A stretch of DNA of 64,000 bases. Origin: Candidatus Kaiserbacteria bacterium (GTDB taxonomy: Bacteria; Patescibacteriota; Minisyncoccia; Phycocordibacterales; UBA918). The position numbers and the translations under genes are program-made. Location: NCBI GenBank assembly GCA_016699245.1, contig CP064968.1:448317-512316 (forward strand). Direction: 5' to 3'. Under the pieces are notes generated by a model. It made no database searches, was not told where the DNA came from, and worked only from the letters and a program-made list of their open reading frames with translations. Each line of letters begins with the position of its first letter. The first letter of the stretch is position 1. Shown piece by piece: positions 20,883 to 63,423 of this stretch.

Positions 20883-21015
20883 GAAAATCCCCTATGTCAA
20901 AGGCGCTGGGGATTATATTTTGAGACCAGGACGGGATTTGAGTCCTACAGACTCCGTTCAGGTTGTAAGATATTTTTTAAAAATATTAACAACCTCTTCA
21001 AATCCCTTGGTCAAG

Positions 21016-21045
21016 AAAAAAACTCCACAGAGTGGAGTTTTTTAC
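21016..21045 (+). terminator. intrinsic terminator of infB-rbfA
   Basis: AAAAACTCCAC-AGA-GTGGAGTTTTTT. Confidence 0.7.
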
Positions 21046-21048
21046 TTG

Positions 21049-21120
21049 AGACCAGGACGGGATTTGAACCCGTGAATGTCGGTTTTGCAGACCGATGCGT
21101 TACCGCTTCGCCACCTGGTC
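21049..21120 (-). tRNA. tRNA-Cys (GCA)
   Basis: Hand-folded cloverleaf: acceptor GACCAGG/CCTGGTC, anticodon loop CTGCAAA, T-arm ACGGGTTCAAATCCCGT. Confidence 0.8.
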
Positions 21121-22798: not shown

Positions 22799-22871
22799 CC
22801 GCCCATAGCTCAGCTGGTAGAGCAGATCGCTCTTAACGATAAGGTCCCAGGTTCGATCCCTGGTGGGCGGA
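22799..22871 (+). tRNA. tRNA-Lys (CTT)
   Basis: Acceptor CCGCCCA/TGGGCGG, D-arm AGCTCAGCTGGTAGAGC, loop CTCTTAA, T-arm CCAGGTTCGATCCCTGG. Confidence 0.7.
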
Positions 22872-22918
22872 CTAATTTAAAAAACCACACAATTTTGTGT
22901 GGTTTTTTAAATTAGTCC
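22869..22918. terminator. 23-bp-arm perfect palindrome right after tRNA-Lys (GGACTAATTTAAAAAACCACACA / TGTGTGGTTTTTTAAATTAGTCC)
   Basis: Read directly; second short hairpin GCGAGCAA-TTTGTT-TTGCTCGC follows at 22923-22945. Confidence 0.65.
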
Positions 22919-22945
22919 GCCCAAGCGAGCAATTTGTTTTGCTCG

Positions 22946-23115
22946 CGGCCAGGGATCGAAAACCTTGCGAGGGATTTTGCGAGTGATAACGAAGCAAAAT
23001 ACCCACAAGGCAAAAACGATTCGTTTTTGAAGGTTGTCGAAATTTGTCAAAATTTCCTACAACCTAAACGGAATCTGTAAGATTTACTGGTCATGTAATG
23101 ACCGATTCCCTGGTG
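22946..23115 (+). repeat. structured repeat element family, copy A (core hairpin 23030-23064; CTGTAAG hairpin at 23069-23083)
   Basis: Closing inverted repeat GGCCAGGGATCG...CGATTCCCTGGTGG; about 90 nt roughly 97% identical to copy B. Confidence 0.6.
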
Positions 23116-23258
23116 GTACGCAATGAAAGAAAATACTAAGAGACTCGTAACGACAAATATACCCAAAATGTACGAAGTGAATAATTATAGTTAGTAATCT
23201 GTGAAGACTAATGATCTCTGTACGCAATGAAGGAAAATACTAAGAAACTCGTGGCGTC
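23115..23258 (+). repeat. two 39-nt direct repeats (23115-23153 and 23220-23258) upstream of tRNA-Leu(CAG)
   Basis: GTACGCAATGAARGAAAATACTAAGARACTCGT...; possible operator duplicate. Confidence 0.4.
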
Positions 23259-23297: not shown

Positions 23298-23379
23298 GGG
23301 CGTATGGCGAAATTGGTAGACGCGCACGGTTCAGGTCCGTGAGCCGCAAGGCATGGAAGTTCGAGTCTTCTTACGCCCA
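23298..23379 (+). tRNA. tRNA-Leu (CAG), long variable arm
   Basis: Acceptor GGGCGTA/TACGCCC, anticodon stem CACGG/CCGTG, loop TTCAGGT. Confidence 0.75.
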
Positions 23380-23380
23380 C

Positions 23381-23425
23381 AAAATAACTAATCCTCAGAT
23401 ACTTCTGAGGATTAGTTATTTTTGG
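23381..23425 (+). terminator. terminator hairpin AACTAATCCTCAGA-TACTT-CTGAGGATTAGTT plus T-run
   Basis: Read directly. Confidence 0.7.
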
Positions 23426-23640
23426 TAGAAGACTCGAAGACCTTGTGAGAGATTTTGCGAGTCTCAGTTGCCGGCAGGCAGATGAGACGAAGTAAAATAT
23501 CCACAAGGCAAAAACGATTTGTTTTTGAAGGTTGTCGAAATTTGTCAAAATTTCATACAACCTAAACGGAATCTGTAAGATTTACTGAAACTGTGCCGCG
23601 TTCCAGTGAACGAAAAGTTTCAAGTCCTCTCGCGCCCACC
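23425..23640 (+). repeat. structured repeat element family, copy B (core 23529-23563), ending in a tRNA 3'-end-like GTTTCAAGTCCTCTCGCGCCCAC
   Basis: Begins with antisense of the tRNA-Leu(CAG) T-arm (GTAGAAGACTCGAAGACC); tail CTGTGCCGCGTTCCAGTGAACGAAAAG shared with the 46.7 kb copy. Confidence 0.6.
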
Positions 23641-30233: not shown

Positions 30234-30971
30234 CTATTTCTTATGACAAAGGAGACCGTAGTGGTGGTCACCTGCGGAAAATGTACCTTCACAGGAAAAA
30301 CCTGCCTGCTCAAGAAGACTTCGAGCATCAGTCTCACTAAAAACATCTTCAGGGCGAGGACCAAGACCACCAAATGAATCCGTCCAATCAATGACGAATA
30401 ATTTTCCACCTTTTCGGAGTACGCGCGCCACTTCGGTGAGTGCAGTATCTTTACGGACAAACTGGAAAAGAATGTTTGAAAGAAGACCTGCATCGAGGGT
30501 ACCATCGTTGAATTTTGTACCGCCTGGAGCTTCAATATCGCACCACACAGGTCGTATGTTATTGAGACGCTGCTCTGCTGCTTTGGTACCAAGAGCGTCA
30601 ACAAGATTTTTTTGAATCTCACATGCGTACACTATGCCACTTAAGCCTACGGCACTTGAAAGAGGCTTTAAATATGCTCCACTACCCGCGCCAAAATCTG
30701 CGACGACATCACCTTCCCGCAAATGGAAATGGGTAACGGTATTCTCTGGGTCTACAAACCTTCCAAGTTGGGTAGGATACATATGTACAGTATACAGGGT
30801 CGCAGGGATATCGGTATGGGCAGTAGTGGAAAATGAGCCGGAACTGCAAAGCAGTTCTGGCTCATTTTCACACACTCCCAAACGCGCAGCGCTGAGGAAA
30901 TTTGCTTGACTCCCAAACTTTCCAAAATTGATTGAGTACAAGGTGAGAAGCGAATACTTGGAGCTTCGCAA
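30234..30971 (-). CDS. class I SAM-dependent methyltransferase (true start may be the internal Met near 30782)
   Basis: VADFGAGSGAY motif I; 5' end of the ORF overlaps a repeat element. Confidence 0.65.
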   Translation of the reverse strand: MRSSKYSLLTLYSINFGKFGSQANFLSAARLGVCENEPELLCSSGSFSTTAHTDIPATLYTVHMYPTQLGRFVDPENTVTHFHLREGDVVADFGAGSGAYLKPLSSAVGLSGIVYACEIQKNLVDALGTKAAEQRLNNIRPVWCDIEAPGGTKFNDGTLDAGLLSNILFQFVRKDTALTEVARVLRKGGKLFVIDWTDSFGGLGPRPEDVFSETDARSLLEQAGFSCEGTFSAGDHHYGLLCHKK

Positions 30972-31150
30972 GAGGTTGTCGATATTTTATAAAAATATCA
31001 TACAACCTGAACAGCGACCGTAGGTCGGGCAAGAAAATGAAGACGAGGCGTGAGAAAGTCTGGGAGACTTTCGCAAGACCTTGAACAGTTTCTGTGAAAG
31101 GTTTACCGTCTCTGTAAGAGACAGATGTACGATGAGTCTTCATTTTTGCA
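30942..31150 (+). repeat. structured repeat element family, copy C (core 30973-31008; CTGTAAG hairpin at 31102-31117)
   Basis: GGTGAGAAGCGA lead-in, then the core module, then TTCGCAAGACCTTGAACAG; same modules as the 63.1 kb copy but in swapped order. Confidence 0.6.
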
Positions 31151-46696: not shown

Positions 46697-46840
46697 GACG
46701 CGAGAGGGGGGATTCGAATCTTTTCGTTCACTGGAACGCGGCACAGATTCTGTTCAGGTTGTATGATAGTTTCTCCTTGCAGTCGAAACTTTCGACAACC
46801 TTTTCGAATCCCCCGCGTAAGCTCCCCCGGAGCTTACTCT
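46697..46840 (-). repeat. structured repeat element family, copy D (inverted; core 46756-46801) bounded by a 12-bp inverted repeat GGGGGATTCGAA/TTCGAATCCCCC and ending in a tRNA 3'-end-like TCCCCCCTCTCGCGTCCA
   Basis: Shares the CTGTGCCGCGTTCCAGTGAACGAAAAG tail with copy B. Confidence 0.6.
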
Positions 46841-46980
46841 CTTCCGCCAACAAAATATGCCCCTTGCGGGGCTATTTTGTATTGGCAGGCATCGTAGGTT
46901 CAGTATCAGAGCGGTGAGATGATGTAAGGATATTTGAGGATTGTTTTAAGAGTTGAAATGAGGTATGTGGGTTGGAGTAT

Positions 46981-47778
46981 TTAAATCCTTTCACTGGGAC
47001 TTGGAACTGTAGCGGCATGTGCTTCAACTAATTCAAAAGTGTATAAACCGTCTTCGTCCTTAAAAAATCTTGCCATAGATGGTAATTCCTCATCGGAAAG
47101 CTTTGTGAATTCTTTCGTACCGTAGTTATGATACTGGCCCATAAGATATTCAATCCTGCCCGAAGTGATACCAGGAATCTGTCTCTTTATATTCTCTCCC
47201 ATCGGATGCTGTTCGTCAGGTTCATTATCAAAAGTAATCGGTTCAGTCTTCGTGTGAAGATTTCCTGCAACTACGAGAGTCGGTACGTCTGAAAGATTGT
47301 TGAGAATATTTTCCGCCATAGCCGCATCTCGCGCATTCCATCCGTATCCACCAGAACCTCCGTCAAAACAGACAAGTCCTTCAAGCATTCCTTCGGACTT
47401 AAGCTTCTTAAGGAGAGCAAAGTGGCCTGCGGTGATGCGTCCATCCGGACTATCCTTAATAGCATCAAAATCAAGCTCTCCCGATTGCAGATACCTTTCA
47501 GCGACTGTTTTAAGCTCTGGCTCCCATTCTAGGGCAAGTTGGCGGAAGCCGAATTTCTTGAACAGTGTGTAAATTACATCTGCATTCTCTTTTACTCCGT
47601 GCATTTCGCCCAAGATGAACAGTTTGGTGTTTCCTATACTCTCCGCAAGTTCTTGAATTGACTGTTTATCAAATATGGTGGGAACTTCTTCAACTAAAAC
47701 GGAAGAAATCGTCTCAATAAATGAGTTTTTATCACCTTCCAGATTCCTTTCTTGTTTTGGCTTTTCAAACTTTTCCAT
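46981..47778 (-). CDS. ChaN/Tiki/TraB-superfamily protein (GEMHG motif), function unknown
   Basis: ILGEMHG motif; weak. Confidence 0.35.
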   Translation of the reverse strand: MEKFEKPKQERNLEGDKNSFIETISSVLVEEVPTIFDKQSIQELAESIGNTKLFILGEMHGVKENADVIYTLFKKFGFRQLALEWEPELKTVAERYLQSGELDFDAIKDSPDGRITAGHFALLKKLKSEGMLEGLVCFDGGSGGYGWNARDAAMAENILNNLSDVPTLVVAGNLHTKTEPITFDNEPDEQHPMGENIKRQIPGITSGRIEYLMGQYHNYGTKEFTKLSDEELPSMARFFKDEDGLYTFELVEAHAATVPSPSERI

Positions 47779-47830
47779 GACTTAATTTTAGCTCAGATCA
47801 AGCTTTTTAGGTACTCGGGTCTGCCGATAC

Positions 47831-47964
47831 TAAGTTCTATTGGCGGAAGAGGGGGGATTCGTCCTGACGGTCACTAATTCGCTGACGCTCATAAGTGCCG
47901 CGGGACACGACTCGCCGGCCCAGAGGGGCCCCGGCTCCGTCGTTCGAATCCCCCCTCTTCTCGC
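47831..47964. repeat. inverted-repeat element with arms copied from the tRNA-Ser 3' end: TGGCGGAAGAGGGGGGATTCG...(84 nt GC-rich)...CGAATCCCCCCTCTTCTCGC
   Basis: 16-bp perfect arms at 47836-47851 and 47945-47960; the left arm is the exact complement of an acceptor/T-stem 3' end plus CCA (primer-binding-site-like). Confidence 0.6.
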
Positions 47965-48008
47965 AACATGCAACAAACCCAATGCTTTCGCATTGGGTTT
48001 GGCAGTTG

Positions 48009-48095
48009 CGGAAGAGGGGGGATTTGAACCCCCGATCGAGTCTCCCCGATGCCGGTTTTCGAAACCGGTGCACTAAACCACTATGCGACTCTTCC
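48009..48095 (-). tRNA. tRNA-Ser (CGA), long variable arm
   Basis: Acceptor GGAAGAG/CTCTTCC, anticodon stem CCGGT/ACCGG, loop TTCGAAA, T-arm GGGGGTTCAAATCCCCC; terminator hairpin at 47970-48000. Confidence 0.75.
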
Positions 48096-48603: not shown

Positions 48604-48675
48604 GGCCCCATCGTCTAACGGTTAGGACATCAGGTTTTCATCCTGGAAATCGGAGTTCGATTCTCCGTGGGGTCA
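48604..48675 (+). tRNA. tRNA-Glu (TTC)
   Basis: Acceptor GGCCCCA/TGGGGTC, anticodon stem TCAGG/CCTGG, loop TTTTCAT, T-arm CGGAGTTCGATTCTCCG. Confidence 0.7.
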
Positions 48676-50368
48676 CATCCAGAGATTTATCATCTCTATT
48701 CTCATCACTTACCTTGAAAAACAAGGATATTTTAGGTGTTCCACTAAGTACTTCTTTGTAGGTCGGAAACTCCAAGAATAGTATCTTGTAAATTGCCATC
48801 TGTTCGGCATAACTACTTATATCTAGGAACATATCTATAGGGTGTTCCATTAGATTTTTTGAGTACTCTAAGAACAAGGTGACTTCTTCGTAACTCAACT
48901 CAATTTTCTTCCTTTCACCCTGCACTTGTCGTAAATCCATACTTAGTCTTTCAAAATCCCTCTCCATCTCGTCTTTCACCAACTCAGAGTTTGATTTCTT
49001 GATTGCAGTCAGCGTTTCTCTCAGTTCAGATTGGATTCCTGTGATTCTCTGGTTTATTACAATTTGAGTATCAAGCGATTTCTCCTGTTCTTGTTTATGT
49101 TTATGAGTAAGGACTTTTTTTAAGATAGAATGGTACTTATCACTAAACTTAATTTTACTCAAAAAGGTCATCATTGCCTTATCAACCTCACTTTGAGGTT
49201 TCCCGTAATATTTATGTGTACGGCTACAATGATAAAAAGAATATTTCTCCTTATTTTTGCTTGTCGATGGACTTGCTAAAAAAGGTTTTTTACAGACATC
49301 GCACAAGACTACATTCTTAAACAGGTAATCTTTACGGAACTTCTGTCTTCTCTTGAGTATTTTCTCAGGGTTTAAGTCGTAAAAGAGTTTGATTTTGTTT
49401 TCTGGTAATTCCTCAACATACACTTTGCCCTTGTTGGCTTGATTAAACTTCTCGATGCTAACCAATCCCTTGTATTGGGTCTTTGTGATTATTTTCTTTT
49501 TTTGAATCTTGCCCCAATTCTCAATATTGACTCCGCAGTAGATAGGATTTTTCCTGTACTTCTGCATTTGCTTGATTGTAAGTTTATTGCCTACTTTTAC
49601 ACCGATTATTCTTTTGTCACCCTTTTTTCCATTCCAAAGTTTCCTATCTCTTGATTTGTAGCCAAGCGAGTTTATGTGGTCTACGATTTCTTGTTCTGTT
49701 AAAACTCCCTCAACGGTTTTATCAAAAAGAGCAATGATTTGAGGTGCTTCCTGCTCGTGTGGAAGTTGTATTGTTTTTTGCTTTCCGTCATTAGCAAGAA
49801 TAACGACATTTTTATAACCATAATTAGCTTCTCTTAACTTGAAGCCAAGACTAGCTCTTGAGAAGCTCGTGTTTACAGTTCTAGTAAGGATATTTGCAAC
49901 ATCTTCTTTGCCCATCTCTGCAAGCAGTATTTCAGTGATACGACTTGGGCTCTTATTACTCCAATCAAAGGAAATGCCAAGATGTTCAAGAGTGTTTGAT
50001 ATTGGCTGGATTATATTTTGACTATCACGAAGTTCAACACCAAGACTTGCTAATTGGCTTTTTATTAAAAGATATTCTTCACTACCAGAGCGAGTACTCC
50101 TATCAATCCTGTTTATAACAAAATACTTTATTTTGTTAGGATTTTTCTTAATTAAATCAATCAGTTCATTATATTTTGGTCTTTTTGCTACTTCAACTTT
50201 TCTACCAGTAAAGATTTCTCTACTTACTTTCCCATCAGGAAAAAGAGTCCAGTGATTATTCTCGATATGACGCTCAATAGCTTTTATTTGATTCTCTAAG
50301 CCGTCACCCTTAAGCTGACTAGGGTCACTGATTCGAGCATATCCAATTGCGTAGATGGGATGGGTCAT
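48638..50368 (-). CDS. large serine recombinase (phage-type integrase)
   Basis: N-terminal YARISDPSQ catalytic Ser motif, recombinase domain, zinc ribbon CDVCKK...YHCSRT, coiled coil; last 13 codons are antisense to the tRNA-Glu T-arm. Confidence 0.85.
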   Translation of the reverse strand: MTHPIYAIGYARISDPSQLKGDGLENQIKAIERHIENNHWTLFPDGKVSREIFTGRKVEVAKRPKYNELIDLIKKNPNKIKYFVINRIDRSTRSGSEEYLLIKSQLASLGVELRDSQNIIQPISNTLEHLGISFDWSNKSPSRITEILLAEMGKEDVANILTRTVNTSFSRASLGFKLREANYGYKNVVILANDGKQKTIQLPHEQEAPQIIALFDKTVEGVLTEQEIVDHINSLGYKSRDRKLWNGKKGDKRIIGVKVGNKLTIKQMQKYRKNPIYCGVNIENWGKIQKKKIITKTQYKGLVSIEKFNQANKGKVYVEELPENKIKLFYDLNPEKILKRRQKFRKDYLFKNVVLCDVCKKPFLASPSTSKNKEKYSFYHCSRTHKYYGKPQSEVDKAMMTFLSKIKFSDKYHSILKKVLTHKHKQEQEKSLDTQIVINQRITGIQSELRETLTAIKKSNSELVKDEMERDFERLSMDLRQVQGERKKIELSYEEVTLFLEYSKNLMEHPIDMFLDISSYAEQMAIYKILFLEFPTYKEVLSGTPKISLFFKVSDENRDDKSLDVTPRRIELRFPG

Positions 50369-50390
50369 CGCAGTTATATTTTAGCATTTT

Positions 50391-50540
50391 TTATTTCTGA
50401 TTTAGTACTTTCTGTTCAATCCATTTTTTGTAAGCAAAGTTTGCAAAGCTTGTAGAAATACGAAAAAGAGACTCAACTTCTTTTTCTGGAAGATTTTTTA
50501 TATCGTCTGCACAAAGTTTTTTGAACTCCTCCAAGGTCAT
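50391..50540 (-). CDS. small protein (49 aa) just upstream of the recombinase; possible directionality factor
   Basis: Hand translation MTLEEFKKLCADDIKNLPEKEVESLFRISTSFANFAYKKWIEQKVLNQK; 22-nt gap to the integrase start. Confidence 0.3.
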   Translation of the reverse strand: MTLEEFKKLCADDIKNLPEKEVESLFRISTSFANFAYKKWIEQKVLNQK

Positions 50541-50597
50541 TGAAGTAGTGTGTGCTACTTCTAATGCTATAGAGATACTGGAAATGACTAGATTAGT

Positions 50598-51347
50598 TTA
50601 ATCCAGTAAGTGCTTGTTTGCCTCAGCTATTGAACGAATGGAGCCATTACTTAGTTTATTCTTAAATAGTTTTTGAACAAACAAGCAGATGATTTTCTCT
50701 TTTGCTTCTACCGCACTATATCTGTAGATATCCTGTAGATTTCGCTCAAAACCAAGCTCGATTGCTTGTTTTTTAAGTTGTGTCATTTCAGTGAAATAAA
50801 GCGTGGTCACAACCTTGTCTCTAAGTTCGTATTTTTTAGGTTTTAGGTTTGGTAACTTCATTTTACCGAAAGTCTGCTCCTGCTTCTTGAGAATGTTTCT
50901 TGAGTTTTGAGCAATAAAATCCTTGAGATTTTTTATTGAATTATTTGTACCAAAACGGATATAGATACCTTTAGGCAAAGCAATATTATTTTTAGTGAAT
51001 CCGTTTGGTAAACTGAAGACTTCACATCCATAGATGTTAAAGATTTCTCGTGATTTTTCTAATGGATAACCATAGATGAAATACTCAGTCCAAAAGTCCA
51101 CAGAAGACTCGTCTTGGCTAATGAGCGTATCAAACAGCTCTGGATACTTAATGAGCAATTTCGCTCTGTAGAGTGCCATATTTTGGCATATACGATGTAT
51201 GTCGTGTTTAGTCAGGTCAATCTGTTCAGTTCTTAGTCCTCGACTTGGTAAGCCAGCCCTAATACGCAAAAAACCAGCGAGTTTTCTGTTTGCTGGTTTG
51301 TTTAATATCTGAAGAAAACCTGTAACTTGAGACTCAGCTTTTGACAT
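50598..51347 (-). CDS. hypothetical protein (249 aa), island cargo
   Basis: ORF track. Confidence 0.4.
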   Translation of the reverse strand: MSKAESQVTGFLQILNKPANRKLAGFLRIRAGLPSRGLRTEQIDLTKHDIHRICQNMALYRAKLLIKYPELFDTLISQDESSVDFWTEYFIYGYPLEKSREIFNIYGCEVFSLPNGFTKNNIALPKGIYIRFGTNNSIKNLKDFIAQNSRNILKKQEQTFGKMKLPNLKPKKYELRDKVVTTLYFTEMTQLKKQAIELGFERNLQDIYRYSAVEAKEKIICLFVQKLFKNKLSNGSIRSIAEANKHLLD

Positions 51348-51378
51348 ACTGATATTCTAACAGTTTCGGTCTCAAATC

Positions 51379-51537
51379 TTAATTCTGAAAAAATCTCAGA
51401 AAAAGAAAGATTATTTGAATGCCAATAAATAACACCGCCCCGCCAATGATTAGACCAGCAAAGCAAGCTGATAAGAAACCTATTATTTCAGCAAGATTAA
51501 AAAATGCCGTAACAATTTTGTGTGCAAGTGCTTCCAT
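51379..51537 (-). CDS. small hydrophobic protein (52 aa, 2 TM)
   Basis: Hand translation MEALAHKIVTAFFNLAEIIGFLSACFAGLIIGGAVLFIGIQIIFLFLRFFQN. Confidence 0.3.
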   Translation of the reverse strand: MEALAHKIVTAFFNLAEIIGFLSACFAGLIIGGAVLFIGIQIIFLFLRFFQN

Positions 51538-51539
51538 AT

Positions 51540-52475
51540 TTATCGCCAAAACATCAACTGCTTAAAAAAGCCAACCACTTTCTGCACAAAATCCTCTTGT
51601 GGTTGCTCTGGCGTAGGTATTTCTTCAACCACTGGAAGTTGAGTAACTGGAGTTGTTGTAGGAGCCACTAAAACCTCCGACAGTTCTTTTGGCTCAGGTG
51701 GAGCTATATCAGGCGTCACAAGTGGTTTTTGAGCTATTGCGGGTGATACCACTGACACCTCCTTTGGAAGCGACTCAAGATACTCATCGTGCTGTGCTGT
51801 ACCCTCCTTTCCGTTCGGGTATTTTTGGTAATACAGAACCGCAATTCTGTCAGAAATATCAGGTCTGCTCGCTTTTATTCTCCCAAAGAAGTCTCTGGCG
51901 TCTGCGAGGGATAGTGAATCCATATAGACAAATCCTTCGTAAATATCAGCATCAGTGAATACCTCAGGGGTACTGTATGACTCCATCTGCTCATCAAGGA
52001 GCTCTTGATATTCCTCAATCTGTGAGAGGTTTTGCTTTTGTAACTCTAGGATTTGCTGACGTAATTTTTCAGCCTCTTTCTCAGCTTTTGCAAGAGCAGA
52101 GACTTCTGACGAGTGCTCATCTTTCTCGTCTTCAAGTTCACTTATTTGGGCATCGTACTTTGCATCAATCTCAGCAAGCTTGGCATCGAGTTGATTCCCG
52201 ATACCATAGCTTCCGTACAGTCCCGTAACATATCGCTTCTCCGTATCACGCTCTGCTTCAAGTGCTTTAATACGAGCATTGATAGTATCGACTGAAACCT
52301 GAGGACTGTTTGCGATTTGTGCCTCAAGCGTTTGGAGTCGATACTCCAGAGCTGAGAGTGCTTCATTCTGCTTTATCCCTACATCAGCAGGGAGATAGTT
52401 GTAGTCGGTGGCGTGTGCTACTGAGAAAAGACATAGGAAAAGTAATGTCGATATTGAAAAGGTTGTTTTTTGCAT
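51540..52475 (-). CDS. secreted coiled-coil protein
   Basis: Start moved to MQKTTFSISTLLFLCLFSVAHA (signal peptide); long EAEK-rich coiled coil. Confidence 0.45.
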   Translation of the reverse strand: MQKTTFSISTLLFLCLFSVAHATDYNYLPADVGIKQNEALSALEYRLQTLEAQIANSPQVSVDTINARIKALEAERDTEKRYVTGLYGSYGIGNQLDAKLAEIDAKYDAQISELEDEKDEHSSEVSALAKAEKEAEKLRQQILELQKQNLSQIEEYQELLDEQMESYSTPEVFTDADIYEGFVYMDSLSLADARDFFGRIKASRPDISDRIAVLYYQKYPNGKEGTAQHDEYLESLPKEVSVVSPAIAQKPLVTPDIAPPEPKELSEVLVAPTTTPVTQLPVVEEIPTPEQPQEDFVQKVVGFFKQLMFWR

Positions 52476-52502
52476 AGGGATGGGTTTGCAATTTAGGCAG
52501 GA

Positions 52503-52610
52503 ACATAAAGCTCCCCGCCAGTGATGCCTTGCGACACCTGTACCTGTTTCCAGATACAACCCATCCCTGAGTGCTCTGACGAGGAGCTTTATATCAGGGA
52601 TGGGTTTTAT
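52503..52610 (-). promoter_or_regulatory. leader region with mutually exclusive hairpins (attenuator or riboswitch-like)
   Basis: AAAGCTCCCCGCCAG (52507-52521) pairs with CTGACGAGGAGCTTT (52576-52590); overlapping stem AACCCATCCCTGA (52557-52569) / TCAGGGATGGGTT (52595-52607). Confidence 0.35.
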
Positions 52611-52738
52611 TTGTACCGTATCTTGCCGAGGCAAGACCTTAGGTAACTATGTTGTGGCTGGTAATTTTATTTCATCTGTGGATTGATAATATCAAAAAAT
52701 CCCGCTATAGACCAGCTTATTTTCTGCTTTATTTTTTA

Positions 52739-53122
52739 CTACATACGCTCAATCACCCTATCTGCAATTGCACTGTAGTCAAATCCAAATGCTGGAAAAT
52801 CAGAAACTGGCTCTTTTTCAAAATGTGGGTCTAACGAGAAGTCTTTCTTGAACTTACGCTCAAGAAGCCACGCATTTGCTTTCCAGTCCTTTTCACCTGC
52901 TTTTTCTATTTTCTTCATCATCTTACGCTTGTACTCGATTGCTTTTTGACCCATCTGCTCCGAAAACTCCGATTTTGTACGCTTCCAATTACACAAAGTA
53001 TCCTCGTTAATACCAGCGAGCATAGAAGCATCTCTTTGAGTCATTCCATCACCTAGGGCTTCGAGAATGATTGCGACCCTCTCAGGGGTCATTTTATAGG
53101 GTTTAGGGGCTATGTCGTTCAT
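52739..53122 (-). CDS. HTH-domain protein (phage terminase small-subunit-like or regulator)
   Basis: MTPERVAIILEALGDGMTQRDASMLAGINEDTLCNW helix-turn-helix. Confidence 0.4.
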   Translation of the reverse strand: MNDIAPKPYKMTPERVAIILEALGDGMTQRDASMLAGINEDTLCNWKRTKSEFSEQMGQKAIEYKRKMMKKIEKAGEKDWKANAWLLERKFKKDFSLDPHFEKEPVSDFPAFGFDYSAIADRVIERM

Positions 53123-53217
53123 AGAGTAACCACTGGTTATCTGATAATGAACGATTTAGTTTTGGCTTACTTTTATTATAGCAAATACGACCTCAATAAT
53201 GTTAAACTTTAAGGGTT

Positions 53218-53802
53218 ATGGAAATTAAATTATTTTTTGGGATAGCATCATCTATTCTTGCTGTTGTGTGTTTCGCCCCTTACATAAGGGACATTTTGAA
53301 GCGAAAGACTGAGCCACATACATATTCGTGGCTTGTATGGACAATCTTGCAGACAGTTGGCGTTATGGCACAACTGAAAGAGGGTGCTGGATACGGGGCT
53401 TGGGCTCTTGGGATTGGTGCTGTATTTTGTTTTGCTATCTTCCTACTCTCTTTCAAATATGGAACAAAGAACATTTCAAAGTTTGATGGATTTTGTCTCC
53501 TCGCCTCACTCGTTGCTATCGTCATTTATTTCACTATTGAAAATCCTGTGTGGGCGATTATAGCTGTATCGCTCATAGACTTCGTAGGTTTTTTACCTAC
53601 TTTCCGAAAGGGTTATCAAGAGCCATTTACAGAGACAGCAAGCACTTTCTTAATGAGTGGAACTGCAAATGTTTTGAGTATTATTGCTCTCCAAAACTAT
53701 AATGTGACAACTGTCCTCTATATCGGAAGTCTCTTTTTCACAAATATGTCTTTTGTATTGATGATTGTAGCCAGAAGAAAGTTACTTAAAAAGTCCGTAT
53801 GA
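53218..53802 (+). CDS. hypothetical 6-TM membrane protein
   Basis: ORF track. Confidence 0.4.
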   Translation: MEIKLFFGIASSILAVVCFAPYIRDILKRKTEPHTYSWLVWTILQTVGVMAQLKEGAGYGAWALGIGAVFCFAIFLLSFKYGTKNISKFDGFCLLASLVAIVIYFTIENPVWAIIAVSLIDFVGFLPTFRKGYQEPFTETASTFLMSGTANVLSIIALQNYNVTTVLYIGSLFFTNMSFVLMIVARRKLLKKSV

Positions 53803-54122
53803 GTTCCTTAAACGTAAAGCTTGTTGTTTTTGTACCTCTTACACATACCGATATTGTGCGTACTGCTTTAGGTGAGGCTGGTGCTGGAAAAATTGGAAAC
53901 TATGATTTTTGCTCATTCTCCACAAGAGGAATTGGACGCTTTCAGGGTAACGAAAAAACAAATCCTAGTGTCGGTACAGCTGGAGTGTACGAGTCAGTGG
54001 AAGAAGACCGAATTGAAGTTTTAGTGCCTAGAGCAATTCTCAAAGATGTTATTGACAGAGTCAAAGCAGTACACCCTTATGAAGAAGTGGCTTTTGATAT
54101 TTATCCATTAGAAGACTTTTAA
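53799..54122 (+). CDS. NIF3-insert/YqfO-like small alpha/beta protein
   Basis: VKLVVFVP...HPYEEVAFDIYPL pattern; overlaps neighbours by 4 nt. Confidence 0.35.
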   Translation: MSSLNVKLVVFVPLTHTDIVRTALGEAGAGKIGNYDFCSFSTRGIGRFQGNEKTNPSVGTAGVYESVEEDRIEVLVPRAILKDVIDRVKAVHPYEEVAFDIYPLEDF

Positions 54123-54124
54123 CT

Positions 54125-55423
54125 ATGTCTGTATCACCATTAGATACAGCATATAATCGCCTAGACGAGGCACACAGAGCTTGGCACACTGCACTTGATG
54201 GTTATCATCGAATTGACGATTTTCGAGCTGGAATAAATACAGCAATTCAAGCACTCAGAAACCTCACTTTTGCACTCCAGAAGCAGAAAGATAACTTGCC
54301 TGACTTTGATATTTGGTACGCTGGTTGGCAAGAAAAAATGCGAGTCAATCCGATACTCAAAGAGCTTCACGAGGCTAGAAATGTCATTGTAAAACAGGAA
54401 GATTTGAAACTTCATAGTGTCGCCACCGCAAGAACAAAAGGTTGGATAGATTTTCAGAAAATGGCTTTTACTTTTGACCCAACTAAAGATAGCTATGATG
54501 TCGCACAAGGCTTCTACAATACTTTCGCAAGGCACTTGCCAGTTGCGGAGGAAATTAAAAGTAGGCTCGTATTTGAGTTTGAAAGAAAATGGGTCTATGA
54601 CAAATTACCTGAGTACGAACTACTCAATGCAATTACTCAGGCATACTATTTTTTCTCTGAAATGCTCGTTGATGCAAGTCAAAGATTTGCTTTACCACAA
54701 AGAGAAAATCATAGTACTGGAGACTATTGCTCTGGCGAGCTGAATGACAAAAATCTATTGAAATGTATGGTGCTTACGCAACAAGAGCGTTGCTTAATTT
54801 TTAGTTTTGAAGATGGAGCAACTATCAAGGCACATACTGAAAGTATTCAACGTGACTCTGTTCATCTTGATAAAGTCCGTGAAAAATATGGTGACGAGTG
54901 GAAATCAGAAGCAACCCTCTCCCTGTTAGATGGTTTATTTCCTACAGAGTACCCATTTTCTCAAATGAAGCTTTTTGCCCAAGTAGCAGTGAGTAATCTC
55001 AAAAAAGACAAATATCTTGTTCCTACTACTTTTATTTTTAAGGGAATTGACGATGTTCCTGTAGTTATAGCCCATCCATTTCAGAATCAGGAACAAAAAG
55101 TGATGACAATGGATTTGATTTCTAGTTCAATCATTAAGAATAATGGGAAGTTCGTGCTCACCATAGCTGAAGTTTGGCAGTATGATTTCAACGATGGAAA
55201 GCCACTGATACCAACTCACGAAAATACGAATGGGGCAAAAGATATATTTGATATTTCCTGCATTTCATCAGAAAAGTTAAAGGTGATACACATACCTTTC
55301 CACAAAAATATCTTCGGAAAAATCATATTTTCAGAACCTACAGTTGAAGATGTATCAACTGACGAACATACGCACTACATACTTCAGCCACTTATTGATG
55401 CACTCAAACAGGTTAGTAAGTAG
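54125..55423 (+). CDS. hypothetical protein (432 aa), island cargo
   Basis: ORF track; no recognisable motif. Confidence 0.4.
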   Translation: MSVSPLDTAYNRLDEAHRAWHTALDGYHRIDDFRAGINTAIQALRNLTFALQKQKDNLPDFDIWYAGWQEKMRVNPILKELHEARNVIVKQEDLKLHSVATARTKGWIDFQKMAFTFDPTKDSYDVAQGFYNTFARHLPVAEEIKSRLVFEFERKWVYDKLPEYELLNAITQAYYFFSEMLVDASQRFALPQRENHSTGDYCSGELNDKNLLKCMVLTQQERCLIFSFEDGATIKAHTESIQRDSVHLDKVREKYGDEWKSEATLSLLDGLFPTEYPFSQMKLFAQVAVSNLKKDKYLVPTTFIFKGIDDVPVVIAHPFQNQEQKVMTMDLISSSIIKNNGKFVLTIAEVWQYDFNDGKPLIPTHENTNGAKDIFDISCISSEKLKVIHIPFHKNIFGKIIFSEPTVEDVSTDEHTHYILQPLIDALKQVSK

Positions 55424-55725
55424 TTCTACTACCTATCTGTTTGGAGTTTGCTGAAGCAAGATTTGTTAATTGAGCTTAATTTGCTACACATTCTCTATCT
55501 GCAAGAAGCTTGAGTTGTAGGCTTGGACACCAGTACAAGATTTCTTGCCACCTAATAACCTCATCCTGTAAGGTGTTCCAGTCAAGGCTCTGTAGGGTCA
55601 TGCAAGCAATCGCCGCCTTCGGGCGGCTTTTGCATGACCCCACGAGTAAACAGTTTGGGAGACTGTTTACGGGAGAATCGAAGCTGATACCTACCACCAA
55701 TTTCTATGACACCTATTTCTGCATG

Positions 55726-57664: not shown

Positions 57665-57749
57665 ATATCACCATATAACCGATACTATAATTTGCACTTT
57701 AGTGTATACTGCTCACTTAAATTATTATTACAATACTGAAATATACGTT

Positions 57750-59176
57750 ATGAAGAAGTGTTTTAACTCAAAAACTAAAATCGTCGCGACGCTCGGGCCT
57801 AATTCCACAGACGTAAAAGTAATCGAAAAGATGATTCTTTCGGGACTTAATGTGGCACGTATCAATATGAGCCATGGTGATTATACCGAGCATGCGCTCA
57901 AGATTAAAAATGCGCGCGCCGCTGCCGCAACTCTGAAACGACCACTTGCAATTCTTCAGGACCTCTCTGGCCCGAAAATTCGCATCGGTGACTTTGCAAC
58001 GGAGACGGTGACGCTCGTCCCCGGAGAAAAAATTACGCTCACCACAGAAAAATGCGTGGGGACGGTGTCTCGTGTATCACTCAACTACGCAAAACTTCCC
58101 AAGGAAGTAGAGCCCGGAATGGCGATTTTCCTCAATGATGGCAAATTAAAACTTGTGGTTGACTCATGCACCGACACCGAAATAGTAACCACTATCATTC
58201 ACGGAGGCACGATTCGCGGACGACGCGGAGTGAATGTACCCGATGCAAATCTCTCTATCTCTTCTCTCACACCAAAAGACAAAAAGATCTCGTGTGGGGA
58301 CTCACACAGAATCCTGACTTTGTTACTCTTTCCTTTGTGCGAAATGCAGCAGACATTCATCTGCTTCGAAAACTCATTAACAAGGACAAGAAACGACAAA
58401 TCATGATTGTTGCAAAAATTGAGACGAAGTATGCTATCGAAAACTTGCAGGAAATTATCGATGCAACCGATGCAGTGATGGTAGCTCGTGGCGACCTTGC
58501 TATTGAAGTTCCTCCAGAAAAGGTACCTCTTCTCCAAAAGCGCATCATTCGTGCTGCAAACCTTGCAGGAAAGCCAGTCATTACTGCCACACAGATGCTC
58601 GACTCAATGAAGACAGAGGCAACACCTACGCGTGCTGAAGTAAGCGATATCGCAAACGCAATCCTCGATGGTACTGATGCCATCATGCTTTCTGATGAAA
58701 CCGCAATCGGTGTTCATCCTGAGCGTCCTGTGGAGGTAATGTCACGAGTTGCGCGTGAAGTAGAGACAGATGCATTCTTTAGCGAACGAATGACCCAGTG
58801 GGAATTCAAAGCAAAAGAGACGTACGAGGCACTTGGAAAGTCGGTTGCAAAGACAGTTATCACCACCGATGCAAAGGCTATTGTAACCTTTAGTGAAAGT
58901 GGTCTCACAAGCCGTATGGTAGCAAGATACAAGCCGATTGTGCCAATCTTTGTACTCACACCCAACAAGGCAGCATATGCTCAGAGTCTTATATCTTTCG
59001 GATGTGAACCAGTACTTATTCATAAAGTACAGAATCTCGCTGATGCGCAAAAGGTGGCGCGTAAGGTACTCTCTGAGTACAATGTCGCGACTAAGGGGGA
59101 TGTGTTTGTACTCGGCGCGGGAATTCCCTTTGGAAGTTCTGGTGCAACCAATATGATGCTCGTTGAGCGAATCTAA
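57750..59176 (+). CDS. pyk: pyruvate kinase, interrupted by a 1-nt frameshift in the A5 run at 58281-58285
   Basis: KIVATLGP, NMSHG; one extra A restores LTPKDKKDLVWGLTQNPDFVTLSFVR. Confidence 0.85.
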
Positions 59177-63109: not shown

Positions 63110-63342
63110 GCGCGGTTAGCTCAGCTGGTAGAGTGAGAAATGGGTGAGAAGCGAGTTTACGCAGCTTCGCAAGACCTTGAGCAGTCTCTGCGAAAGGTGT
63201 ACAGCGACTGTAAGTCGGGGACCCATTTCGCAAGAGGTTGTCGATATTTTGACGTAAGGAAAAATATCATACAACCTGAACAGGTCCTGTTAAGGACTCA
63301 CATTGAGCGCAAAGGTGAGAAAAAGATACAAATGAATAGTAT
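63110..63342 (+). repeat. tRNA-Val 5' fragment (24 nt, 63110-63133) followed by repeat element copy E (core 63235-63277; CTGTAAG hairpin 63196-63208)
   Basis: GCGCGGTTAGCTCAGCTGGTAGAG is identical to tRNA-Val nt 1-24; then GGTGAGAAGCGAG, TTCGCAAGACCTTGAGCAG and core modules. Confidence 0.6.
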
Positions 63343-63415
63343 GCGCGGTTAGCTCAGCTGGTAGAGCATCACATTGACATTGTGGGGGTCACAGGTTCAA
63401 GTCCTGTATCGCGCA
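63343..63415 (+). tRNA. tRNA-Val (GAC)
   Basis: Acceptor GCGCGGT/ATCGCGC, anticodon stem TCACA/TGTGG, loop TTGACAT, T-arm ACAGGTTCAAGTCCTGT. Confidence 0.75.
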
Positions 63416-63423
63416 CCGAGGGA

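Follow-up and report, generated by a model that had tools for sequence, protein, structure and literature searches.

Integrative elements that target the T-loops of tRNA genes leave repeats of tRNA fragments, attL and attR, and direct repeats of tRNA ends that arise by integration are textbook material. Islands of this kind are classically recognized by a functional tRNA end that the inserted side supplies and by displacement of the original one. We analyzed a 64,000-nt stretch of a Candidatus Kaiserbacteria bacterium genome (contig CP064968.1; hereafter the window), in which a short element linked to a tRNA-Ser(CGA) gene, labeled E2, carries a 16-nt inverted repeat and three copies of the tRNA end, labeled S1, A, and S2. 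As at attL/attR sites, a direct repeat (17 nt exact) runs from the T-loop through the tRNA 3′ end into the trailer and bounds an insert, the gene is intact, and the original end is displaced, with an ancestral trailer behind it. In contrast to such sites, the direct repeats of E2 are separated by only ~145 nt of unique DNA without an open reading frame (ORF), no integrase or cargo lies between them, and there is a third, inverted copy. The insert is also structured, the inserts of the spirochaete elements are conserved and covarying, and the layout occurs in many phyla.

MITEs (miniature transposable elements with inverted repeats), ERIC, REP/BIME, and Correia sequences, and att-flanked cis-mobilizable elements, as non-autonomous palindromes of intergenic DNA, offer a second comparison. 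Like them, modules of the E2 type are small, contain no ORF, and have terminal inverted repeats that fold into a hairpin; in E2 these are perfect 16-nt arms (26 nt with one indel) in an element of ~120 nt overall. The modules likewise sit after terminators, form lineage-specific multi-copy families, and show presence/absence polymorphism. Unlike the arms of these elements, those of the modules copy the adjacent tRNA’s own 3′ end and match its acceptor stem, and the flanking repeat is 10–76 nt long with one end fixed in the T-loop, rather than a short duplication of fixed length. We know of no cognate transposase for the modules. Integron attC sites and the attP of CTX phage (two inverted sites ~90 nt apart), single-strand sites that recombine in folded form, offer a possible third comparison. 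The modules have two inverted half-sites ~80–110 nt apart that, if folded, would restore a duplex of the chromosomal target, but they have no R/L boxes, extrahelical bases, XerCD/dif-like sequences, cassette, or phage genome.

We favor, with a probability of roughly 0.5, the reading that E2 is a ~165-bp non-coding insertion or duplication in the T-loop/3′ end of tRNA-Ser(CGA) and a member of a recurrent class of tRNA T-loop modules. As read from sequence, the wider class appears to consist of small hairpin modules 25–65 nt downstream of tRNA genes in several phyla, each with an antisense and a sense copy of its own tRNA end. Relative to textbook att repeats, what appears to be new, and was found neither in Rfam nor in the literature searched, is that one copy is inverted, that the insert is tiny and structured, that the duplication is long and one-sided, and that several phyla share the arrangement. 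The layout class seems to be undescribed, and searches of the literature on tRNA-linked inverted or direct repeats, minihelix-like intergenic elements, and tRNA-targeting MITEs found nothing describing it.

Anatomy of E2

On the minus strand the order is tRNA (S1), terminator-like hairpin, A, an 80-nt insert, S2 with CCA, trailer and leader, and the start of a gene encoding a 265-aa protein. The parts are as follows.

48008 to 48095, minus strand: tRNA-Ser(CGA), functional gene (ARAGORN; Rfam tRNA model, 58.2 bits).
48008 to 48026, minus strand: S1, the 3′ part of the tRNA from C56 to C74, CAAATCCCCCCTCTTCCG-CAAC including the trailer (sequence).
47974 to 48001, unstranded: perfect 12-bp hairpin CAAACCCAATGC / GCATTGGGTTTG with a 4-nt loop, the terminator-like center of the S1/A near-palindrome (repeat pair, long-hairpin alignments).
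47942 to 47967, minus strand: A, the inverted copy of the tRNA 3′ end, which holds the right arm, 47945–47960 (repeat pairs, one of 19 nt at 95%; sequence comparison).
47862 to 47941, minus strand: G+C-rich structured insert of 80 nt (folds; 66% G+C).
47841 to 47861, minus strand: S2, which repeats the tRNA 3′ end in direct orientation, beginning at C56 (CGAATCCCCCCTCTTCCG) and followed by CCA, and equals the left arm on the other strand (direct repeat; homology to relatives L055 and L074).
47779 to 47840, minus strand: trailer of the ancestral tRNA and the leader ..ATCGGCAGACCCGAGTACCTAAAAAGCTTGAT..GCTAAAATTA.. conserved before the 265-aa gene (both also found behind an intact tRNA-Ser in relatives L002, L003, L047, and L075).

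A preliminary description of the locus had reported a perfect inverted repeat, made of the tRNA-Ser 3′ end, around a G+C-rich insert of 84 nt. The repeat is real. A repeat search places its arms at 47846–47861 (GAAGAGGGGGGATTCG) and 47945–47960 (CGAATCCCCCCTCTTC), 16 nt each and 100% complementary, with a spacing of 83 nt, not 84. The insert is indeed rich in G+C, at 66% versus 44% for the window. Within the window the arm motif has four matches at ≤3 mismatches against 0.37 expected, a count reached in 0/100 shuffles. A pairs with S2 to form the perfect 16-bp stem, and this stem and the insert are predicted to fold into a three-way junction with two hairpins. The E2 region folds much more stably than shuffled sequences whichever strand is taken (minus strand, z = −7.3; plus strand, z = −6.2), and the insert hairpin at 47862–47900 is also present in L074.

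The left arm had been described as the exact reverse complement of the tRNA-Ser 3′ end plus CCA. That identity holds for 17 nt only: the extended left arm, TGGCGGAAGAGGGGGGATTCG, equals the tRNA antisense at 47843–47859 (48008–48024 in the tRNA) and departs from it at T-loop position 57 (G versus A) and in the terminal CCA versus CAA. The tRNA-Ser(CGA) gene, 47 nt from the right arm, does not encode CCA, as had been stated; its trailer is GCAAC. The right arm is also part of a longer near-palindrome of 26 nt, in which 47942–47967 faces 48004–48029 (tRNA 3′ end and trailer) across the perfect 12-bp hairpin, which failed a simple terminator scan owing to its weak T-run. On the plus strand A reads GTTCGAATCCCCCCTCTTC-T-CGCAAC, spanning G53, the acceptor, and the S1-type trailer CAAC.

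Origin of the displaced CCA end

Relative L055 has an uninterrupted tRNA-Ser(CGA) gene that encodes CCA, and the order tRNA-Glu / tRNA-Ser(CGA) / gene is common to L055 and the window. The end of this tRNA and its trailer (CTCTTCCGCCAAAAAAACTTAGTA..GACCCGA) are homologous to S2 and the DNA downstream of it in the window (CTCTTCCGCCAATAGAACTTAGTA..GACCCGA). The S2 trailer is also homologous to the tRNA-Ser trailers of L002, L003, and L047, and the trailers of S1 copies are unrelated hairpins unlike it. The conserved leader GACCCGAGTACC.. in front of the 265-aa gene is immediately preceded by an intact tRNA-Ser in L002, L003, L047, and L075. Since S2 and its trailer are homologous to a gene end that encodes CCA, this comparison identifies S2 as the displaced ancestral end of the tRNA-Ser(CGA) gene, with a genomic CCA, and not as a copy of a mature tRNA.

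Comparison with relatives, as the preliminary description had proposed, also found an orthologous filled site in L074 (83% protein identity; contig found in three samples). There a CCA-less S1 is followed by a terminator, a degenerate A, an insert rich in G+C, and a CCA-bearing S2. Its junctions agree with those of the window, with identity from C56 and divergence after C74 (S1 ..CCGC|AA, S2 ..CCGC|CA). The filled site in L074 rules out an assembly artefact and, going by these shared junctions, dates the event to the common ancestor of the Kaiserbacteria genome and L074. L074 has retained the insert's 3′ hairpin, in which 4/10 pairs are changed on both sides, and the A:S2 arm pairing is degenerate there.

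Two further conserved features surround the 265-aa gene. The leader GACCCGAGTACCTAnAAAGCTTGATnTnAGCTAAAATTAnGnCATG (window 47779–47822, minus strand) precedes this gene in all close relatives; in L074 (1199–1244) it also precedes an unrelated 119-aa gene, and it could be a lineage promoter or leader motif. A conserved non-coding element of ~100 nt, ..CCCACAnACCTCA...CTCACCnCTCTGGTACTGAACCCnC..GCCCGC, lies immediately 3′ of the gene (window 46881–46980), with copies in L002 (4800–4900), L005 (1870–1960 and 2830–2925), L074 (1085–1170), L075 (895–990), and L055 (1215–1262). One relative has a second copy upstream of the 265-aa gene, and the element is a possible 3′ UTR (untranslated region) RNA motif.

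Sister elements in the window

Four further loci of the window share the construction of E2.

46700 to 46880, minus strand: E1, of the same kind as E2, with no adjacent tRNA (sequence comparison); terminator 46850–46880, A1 46803–46849, insert 46719–46802, S2-like arm 46700–46718.
20920 to 21047, minus strand: layout after tRNA-Cys (21048–21120; permutation p < 0.002 for S, 0.002 for A); terminator 21011–21049, A 20996–21015, A+T-rich hairpin module, S2 20920–20941 (exact 20-nt copy from T55).
22873 to 23116, plus strand: layout after tRNA-Lys (22799–22872; permutation p = 0.002 for S, A score in 0/500 shuffles); palindromic terminator 22873–22914, hairpin-interrupted A 22915–22960, module array, degenerate S2 23103–23116.
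23381 to 23639, plus strand: layout after tRNA-Leu(CAG) (23298–23380; permutation p = 0.02 for S, A score in 0/500 shuffles); terminator 23381–23423, A 23424–23438, module array, S2-like arm 23618–23639.

In all, half of the window’s eight tRNAs (4/8: tRNA-Ser(CGA), tRNA-Cys, tRNA-Lys, and tRNA-Leu(CAG)) carry both copies, with antisense scores reached in 0–1 of 500 shuffles and sense p values from 0 to 0.022. A1 of E1 consists of TGGCGGAAGAGA, a 23-nt hairpin, and then GGGGGATTCGAA, and the antisense arm even contains TTGGCGGAAGAG, which is complementary to ..CTCTTCCGCCAA. In the elements behind tRNA-Cys, tRNA-Lys, and tRNA-Leu, the pairing between the arms is degenerate. The inserts of these three and of E1 share a genome-specific module, AGGTTGT..ACAACCT-RAAC-RGARTCTGT, with six matches in the window; between E1 and tRNA-Leu(CAG), 23 kb apart, one block is identical over 25/25 nt, a match that indicates recent movement or recombination. 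The E2 insert is unique in the window, where its 29-nt stretch 47914–47942 has a single match. We also considered whether the junction could derive from a restriction site, as TT^CGAA fits C56, and rejected this because the tRNA-Cys T-loop, TTCAAAT, has no such site and the same layout.

Related arrangements were seen elsewhere. Upstream of tRNA-Val (63343–63417) lies an exact copy of its first 24 nt (63111–63134), followed by ~200 nt of AGGTTGT..ACAACCT modules, so that this region (63111–63342) mirrors on the 5′ side the layout at tRNA 3′ ends. Modules of this hairpin family (GTGAGAAGCGA..TCGCAAGA-GGTTGT..ACAACCT..) are also repeated in tandem at 30930–31140 of the window, where there is no tRNA close by. 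L075 repeats the construction of E1 at 1000–1140, downstream of its 265-aa gene; the parts there are a fragment resembling a tRNA end (TTCGAATCCTCGTGGGCCCGCCA), a terminator, and a hairpin-interrupted antisense copy.

Recurrence across phyla

One genome per species was scanned with the pattern GGGGGGATTCG, 72–102 nt, CGAATCCCCC, which yielded 39 loci. In 20 of the 39, a tRNA lies upstream in the same orientation, the distal arm being the sense copy, at a distance of 25–178 nt (25–64 nt in 18). Most of these tRNAs are tRNA-Ser, and tRNA-Arg, tRNA-Pro, and a single tRNA-Met also occur. Counted from C56, the direct repeat is exact over 10–76 nt in 19/20 loci and takes in trailers and whole terminators. 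Examples come from Coriobacteriia (L011, L033), Gracilibacteria (L017), a Thermoplasmatota archaeon (L018), Clostridia and Sphaerochaetaceae (L014, L021), and many Spirochaetes, and proposed members of the class have thus been seen in these groups and in Patescibacteria. The full layout, with a tRNA 25–65 nt upstream in the same orientation, a sense copy from positions 54–56, and an antisense copy between terminator and insert, is shared by E2, L074, the tRNA-Cys, tRNA-Lys, and tRNA-Leu elements, and the 20/39 scan loci. The small size (~100–190 nt) and the internal order recur in unrelated phyla, and the inner end of A falls within the T-stem (positions 50–54) in independent families. S1, terminator, and A form a near-perfect palindrome centered on the terminator loop here and in L011 and L070.

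In Spirochaetes, the tRNA-Ser/tRNA-Arg/SRP RNA cluster has copies after as many as four tRNA-Ser isoacceptors, and a single copy in Treponema follows a tRNA-Pro. Where the antisense arms reach the acceptor, they match the local tRNA. A structural alignment of 22 spirochaete copies with 31 pairs has 97% of its cells paired; two-sided changes occur in 14 pairs, versus 5.9 ± 1.3 in shuffled alignments (0/500) and ≤5 in slid controls. Depending on the genome, the spacer between tRNA-Ser(CGA) and tRNA-Ser(GGA) holds a full element, a truncated one, or none, and in the filled spacer the ancestral terminator follows S2, not S1. CsrA-type AGGA loops were considered for the spirochaete elements and dropped, as the motif is not invariant.

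Two by-products of the scan may be recorded. The Clostridia metagenome-assembled genome L014 (3247–3340) and Sphaerochaetaceae L021 (2427–2527) hold a homologous element, GGTAGTGAATGACAGCC..GGCTGTCAGAGCC, 42–45 nt after tRNA-Arg(ACG), in which the match of the arms to the tRNA is confined to the T-loop/T-stem part. A MITE-like family with 26-nt terminal inverted repeats (GGAAAAGGGGGGnnGGGGGGGATTCG) and no tRNA link was also caught (L010, L013, and L028 in Geomonas; L026 and L029 in Lysobacter; L039).

Searches for enzymes, families, and mobile relatives

A Pfam scan of 17 ORFs between 43 and 62 kb of the window found no reverse transcriptase, in agreement with the preliminary description, and no tyrosine integrase. 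No LTR-like repeats were found around E2 in a repeat search. On the element itself ARAGORN found no tRNA or tmRNA, and the Rfam tRNA and tmRNA models gave no score on E2; mascRNA reached only 23 bits, on tRNA-Glu. Rfam searches of the element, its flanks, and related loci returned no family, only sub-threshold microRNA-hairpin and weak sX4 matches, which reflect the long hairpin and the neighboring tRNA. Permuted tRNA, tRNA-Sec, and tmRNA were looked for by eye, with nothing seen. When the insert was aligned to tRNA-Ser in sense and antisense, no similarity was found beyond the T-arm. Scans of viral contigs with two arm patterns gave few matches; two lie at prophage/host borders by tRNA-Ser or a fragment of it, with no integrase linked.

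The genes neighboring E2 encode a Tiki/ChaN-like protein (the 265-aa gene, 46981–47778, which begins after the 62-nt trailer/leader downstream of S2), a VIT1-family protein, and a large serine recombinase of 576 aa (48638..50368, minus strand). The last 13 codons of the recombinase gene overlap the 3′ end of tRNA-Glu (48604–48676, plus strand), at which a low-G+C island (0.33–0.41; window 48604–55500) begins. The island ORFs after the recombinase, to 55423, have no Pfam match. No repeat of the tRNA-Glu end was found elsewhere in the window, and no link was seen between the serine-recombinase island and the tRNA-Ser copies. Retron msr/msd was considered and set aside, given these neighbors and no reverse transcriptase beside the element. 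Further along the window, the pyruvate kinase sequence is broken over two ORFs that overlap (57702..58406 and 58166..59176), through a frameshift or pseudogene or a sequencing error.

Proposed origin of the modules

The favored insertion or duplication would have begun with a small non-autonomous element inserting at the T-loop, with its junction at T54–C56. The target would then have been duplicated from T54–C56 to a variable downstream position, and short-tract gene conversion with quasi-palindrome correction may have kept the three copies alike. The fixed inner junction at T54–C56 and the variable 10–76-nt duplication resemble staggered, target-primed insertion; speculatively, an RNA or single strand ending in a mimic of the tRNA end might anneal to the nicked tRNA gene. 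The hairpin fold would probably serve the element’s own spread or stability, with the sequestering of a spare tRNA end as a side effect. What the comparisons show directly is the arrangement of three copies, the ancestral state of S2, a junction fixed in the T-loop with a variable outer end, recurrence behind different tRNAs with inserts homologous within a lineage, gains, losses, and truncations among relatives, and a conserved fold; origin by insertion, mobility, duplication from staggered breaks, and later homogenization of the copies are inferred. More tentatively, and with distinctly lower confidence than we place in the reading of E2 itself, the modules may be undescribed, widespread, small structured mobile elements that home to tRNA T-loops, or alternatively the spirochaete members may be a new tRNA-linked non-coding RNA (ncRNA) family.

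Several observations weigh against this account. No enzyme able to move such an element was found: none of the elements examined has an integrase, transposase, or reverse transcriptase gene beside it, and those of other phyla stand among ordinary core genes. BLAST comparison of E2 with phage and plasmid collections gave no match, and the insert is unique in the window, so that E2 itself is no more than a candidate for mobility. A target duplication of 10–76 nt is unusual for known transposases. Cut-and-paste transposition does not predict an antisense copy that matches the local acceptor, so a further homogenization step must be assumed. The strong conservation and covariation in Spirochaetes would also fit an RNA useful to the host. 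The tRNA upstream of the 265-aa gene varies among relatives (GGA in L002 and L047, CGA in L055 and the window), and the empty and filled sites are therefore not strictly isogenic.

Alternative explanations

E2 could instead be a functional structured RNA, transcribed with the tRNA or just after it, that mimics a tRNA end for RNase P, RNase Z, or the CCA-adding enzyme, or that acts as a processing mark or maturation regulator. We consider this unlikely, while ranking it first among the alternatives. The very stable fold (z = −7.3), the conserved and covarying spirochaete structure across many genomes and paralogous sites, the compensatory changes in the E2 hairpin relative to L074, the core-genome contexts, and the sense copy followed by the same trailer as the tRNA, to which the same 3′ processing could apply, all speak for it. 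The preliminary description had likewise seen a minihelix mimic, and E2 does allow a 16-bp acceptor and T-stem helix ending in G-CCA, as in the tRNA-like domain of tmRNA, viral 3′ tRNA-like structures, mascRNA, and the tRNA-like domain of bacterial Y RNAs. Unlike these, however, E2 has an A-C mismatch at 1:72, no T-loop/D-loop mimic, and pairing that is not conserved in its orthologue; the predicted fold pairs the discriminator and the first C of CCA with an upstream GCG, and the arms are also degenerate in the tRNA-Cys, tRNA-Lys, and tRNA-Leu elements. In most cases outside the spirochaetes a terminator stands between tRNA and element, no E2 promoter was found, related spirochaetes have lost or truncated the element at the same site, the counts of G-U (6) versus A-C (4) point to no RNA strand, and no Rfam family matches. 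Next in our ranking, and rather improbable, is a relic of a large integrase-borne island that integrated in the tRNA T-loop and lost nearly all of its DNA, leaving attL and attR. Among the readings of the preliminary description, integrase att relics come closest to the evidence: the direct repeat leads from the T-loop across the end of the tRNA and into the trailer, the inserted side supplies the working tRNA end while the original one is displaced, and a serine-recombinase island lies next door at tRNA-Glu. Yet that recombinase belongs to another tRNA and another side, no integrase or cargo remnant lies beside any copy, the inverted copy is foreign to attL/attR, S2 is not preceded by a G-rich core half-site, and the same size (~100–190 nt) and order in unrelated phyla are not expected of random deletion.

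Close behind in the ranking, and also improbable, is a local replication error without any mobile element, in which replication would switch templates at the terminator hairpin and at the T-loop palindrome TTCGAA and recopy the tRNA end first inverted and then direct, with hairpin repeats accumulating later. The S1-terminator-A palindrome seen in this locus, in L011, and in L070, the position of A's inner end in the T-stem (50–54) in independent families, the invariable match of A to the local tRNA, and window inserts built of repeat modules also found away from tRNAs are as this account would have it. It leaves unexplained an 80–110-nt insert with family-specific, conserved, covarying sequence and homologous inserts behind different tRNAs, and a simple double switch predicts that A abuts S2. 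These three alternatives stand above the last two, both poorly supported. A decayed second tRNA-Ser gene between tRNA-Ser(CGA) and the 265-aa gene, the simple pseudogene that the preliminary description had named as its refutation, is suggested by the intact tRNA-Ser(GGA) directly upstream of the conserved leader in L002, L003, and L047. It is very unlikely: the insert has no similarity to any part of a tRNA, ARAGORN and the Rfam tRNA model are blank there, S2 has the acceptor sequence of tRNA-Ser(CGA) and a trailer matching the one behind tRNA-Ser(CGA) in L055, decay does not produce a perfect inverted copy, and no intermediate forms of cloverleaf decay were seen in relatives. Least likely of all, and rejected here, is the earlier proposal of a primer-binding site, or another retroelement part derived from or complementary to mature tRNA-Ser. 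Like the primer-binding sites of retroviruses and LTR (long terminal repeat) retrotransposons, E2 has a stretch beginning with TGG (21 nt) that is complementary to the tRNA-Ser 3′ end plus CCA, and the neighboring gene has no CCA. But this CCA and the trailer that follows belong to the ancestral genome sequence, with the CCA encoded in L055; equivalent repeats elsewhere hold trailers and terminators that are absent from a mature tRNA; the ORFs scanned between 43 and 62 kb include no reverse transcriptase, and there are no long terminal repeats; the complementarity reaches position 56, past the 18 nt that such sites use; and the sense copy lies on the strand of the tRNA gene.

Implications

For annotation, the insertion or duplication that we favor at E2 means that a TGG...CCA complement beside a tRNA gene need not imply reverse transcription, that an encoded CCA can vanish from the working gene yet persist in a displaced copy, and that an inverted copy should be checked for before such fragments are called integrase att scars. 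The wider class merits a systematic survey. If it is real and mobile, it would be a new kind of tRNA-gene parasite, one that lacks an ORF, takes its arms from the target, and duplicates a long stretch of target on one side, and it would account for many tRNA-end fragments that lie unexplained beside the tRNA genes of bacteria and archaea. Should the spirochaete members be functional RNAs, they would form a new conserved ncRNA family within the tRNA-Ser/SRP RNA cluster. In the Kaiserbacteria genome, E2 is most likely neutral baggage.

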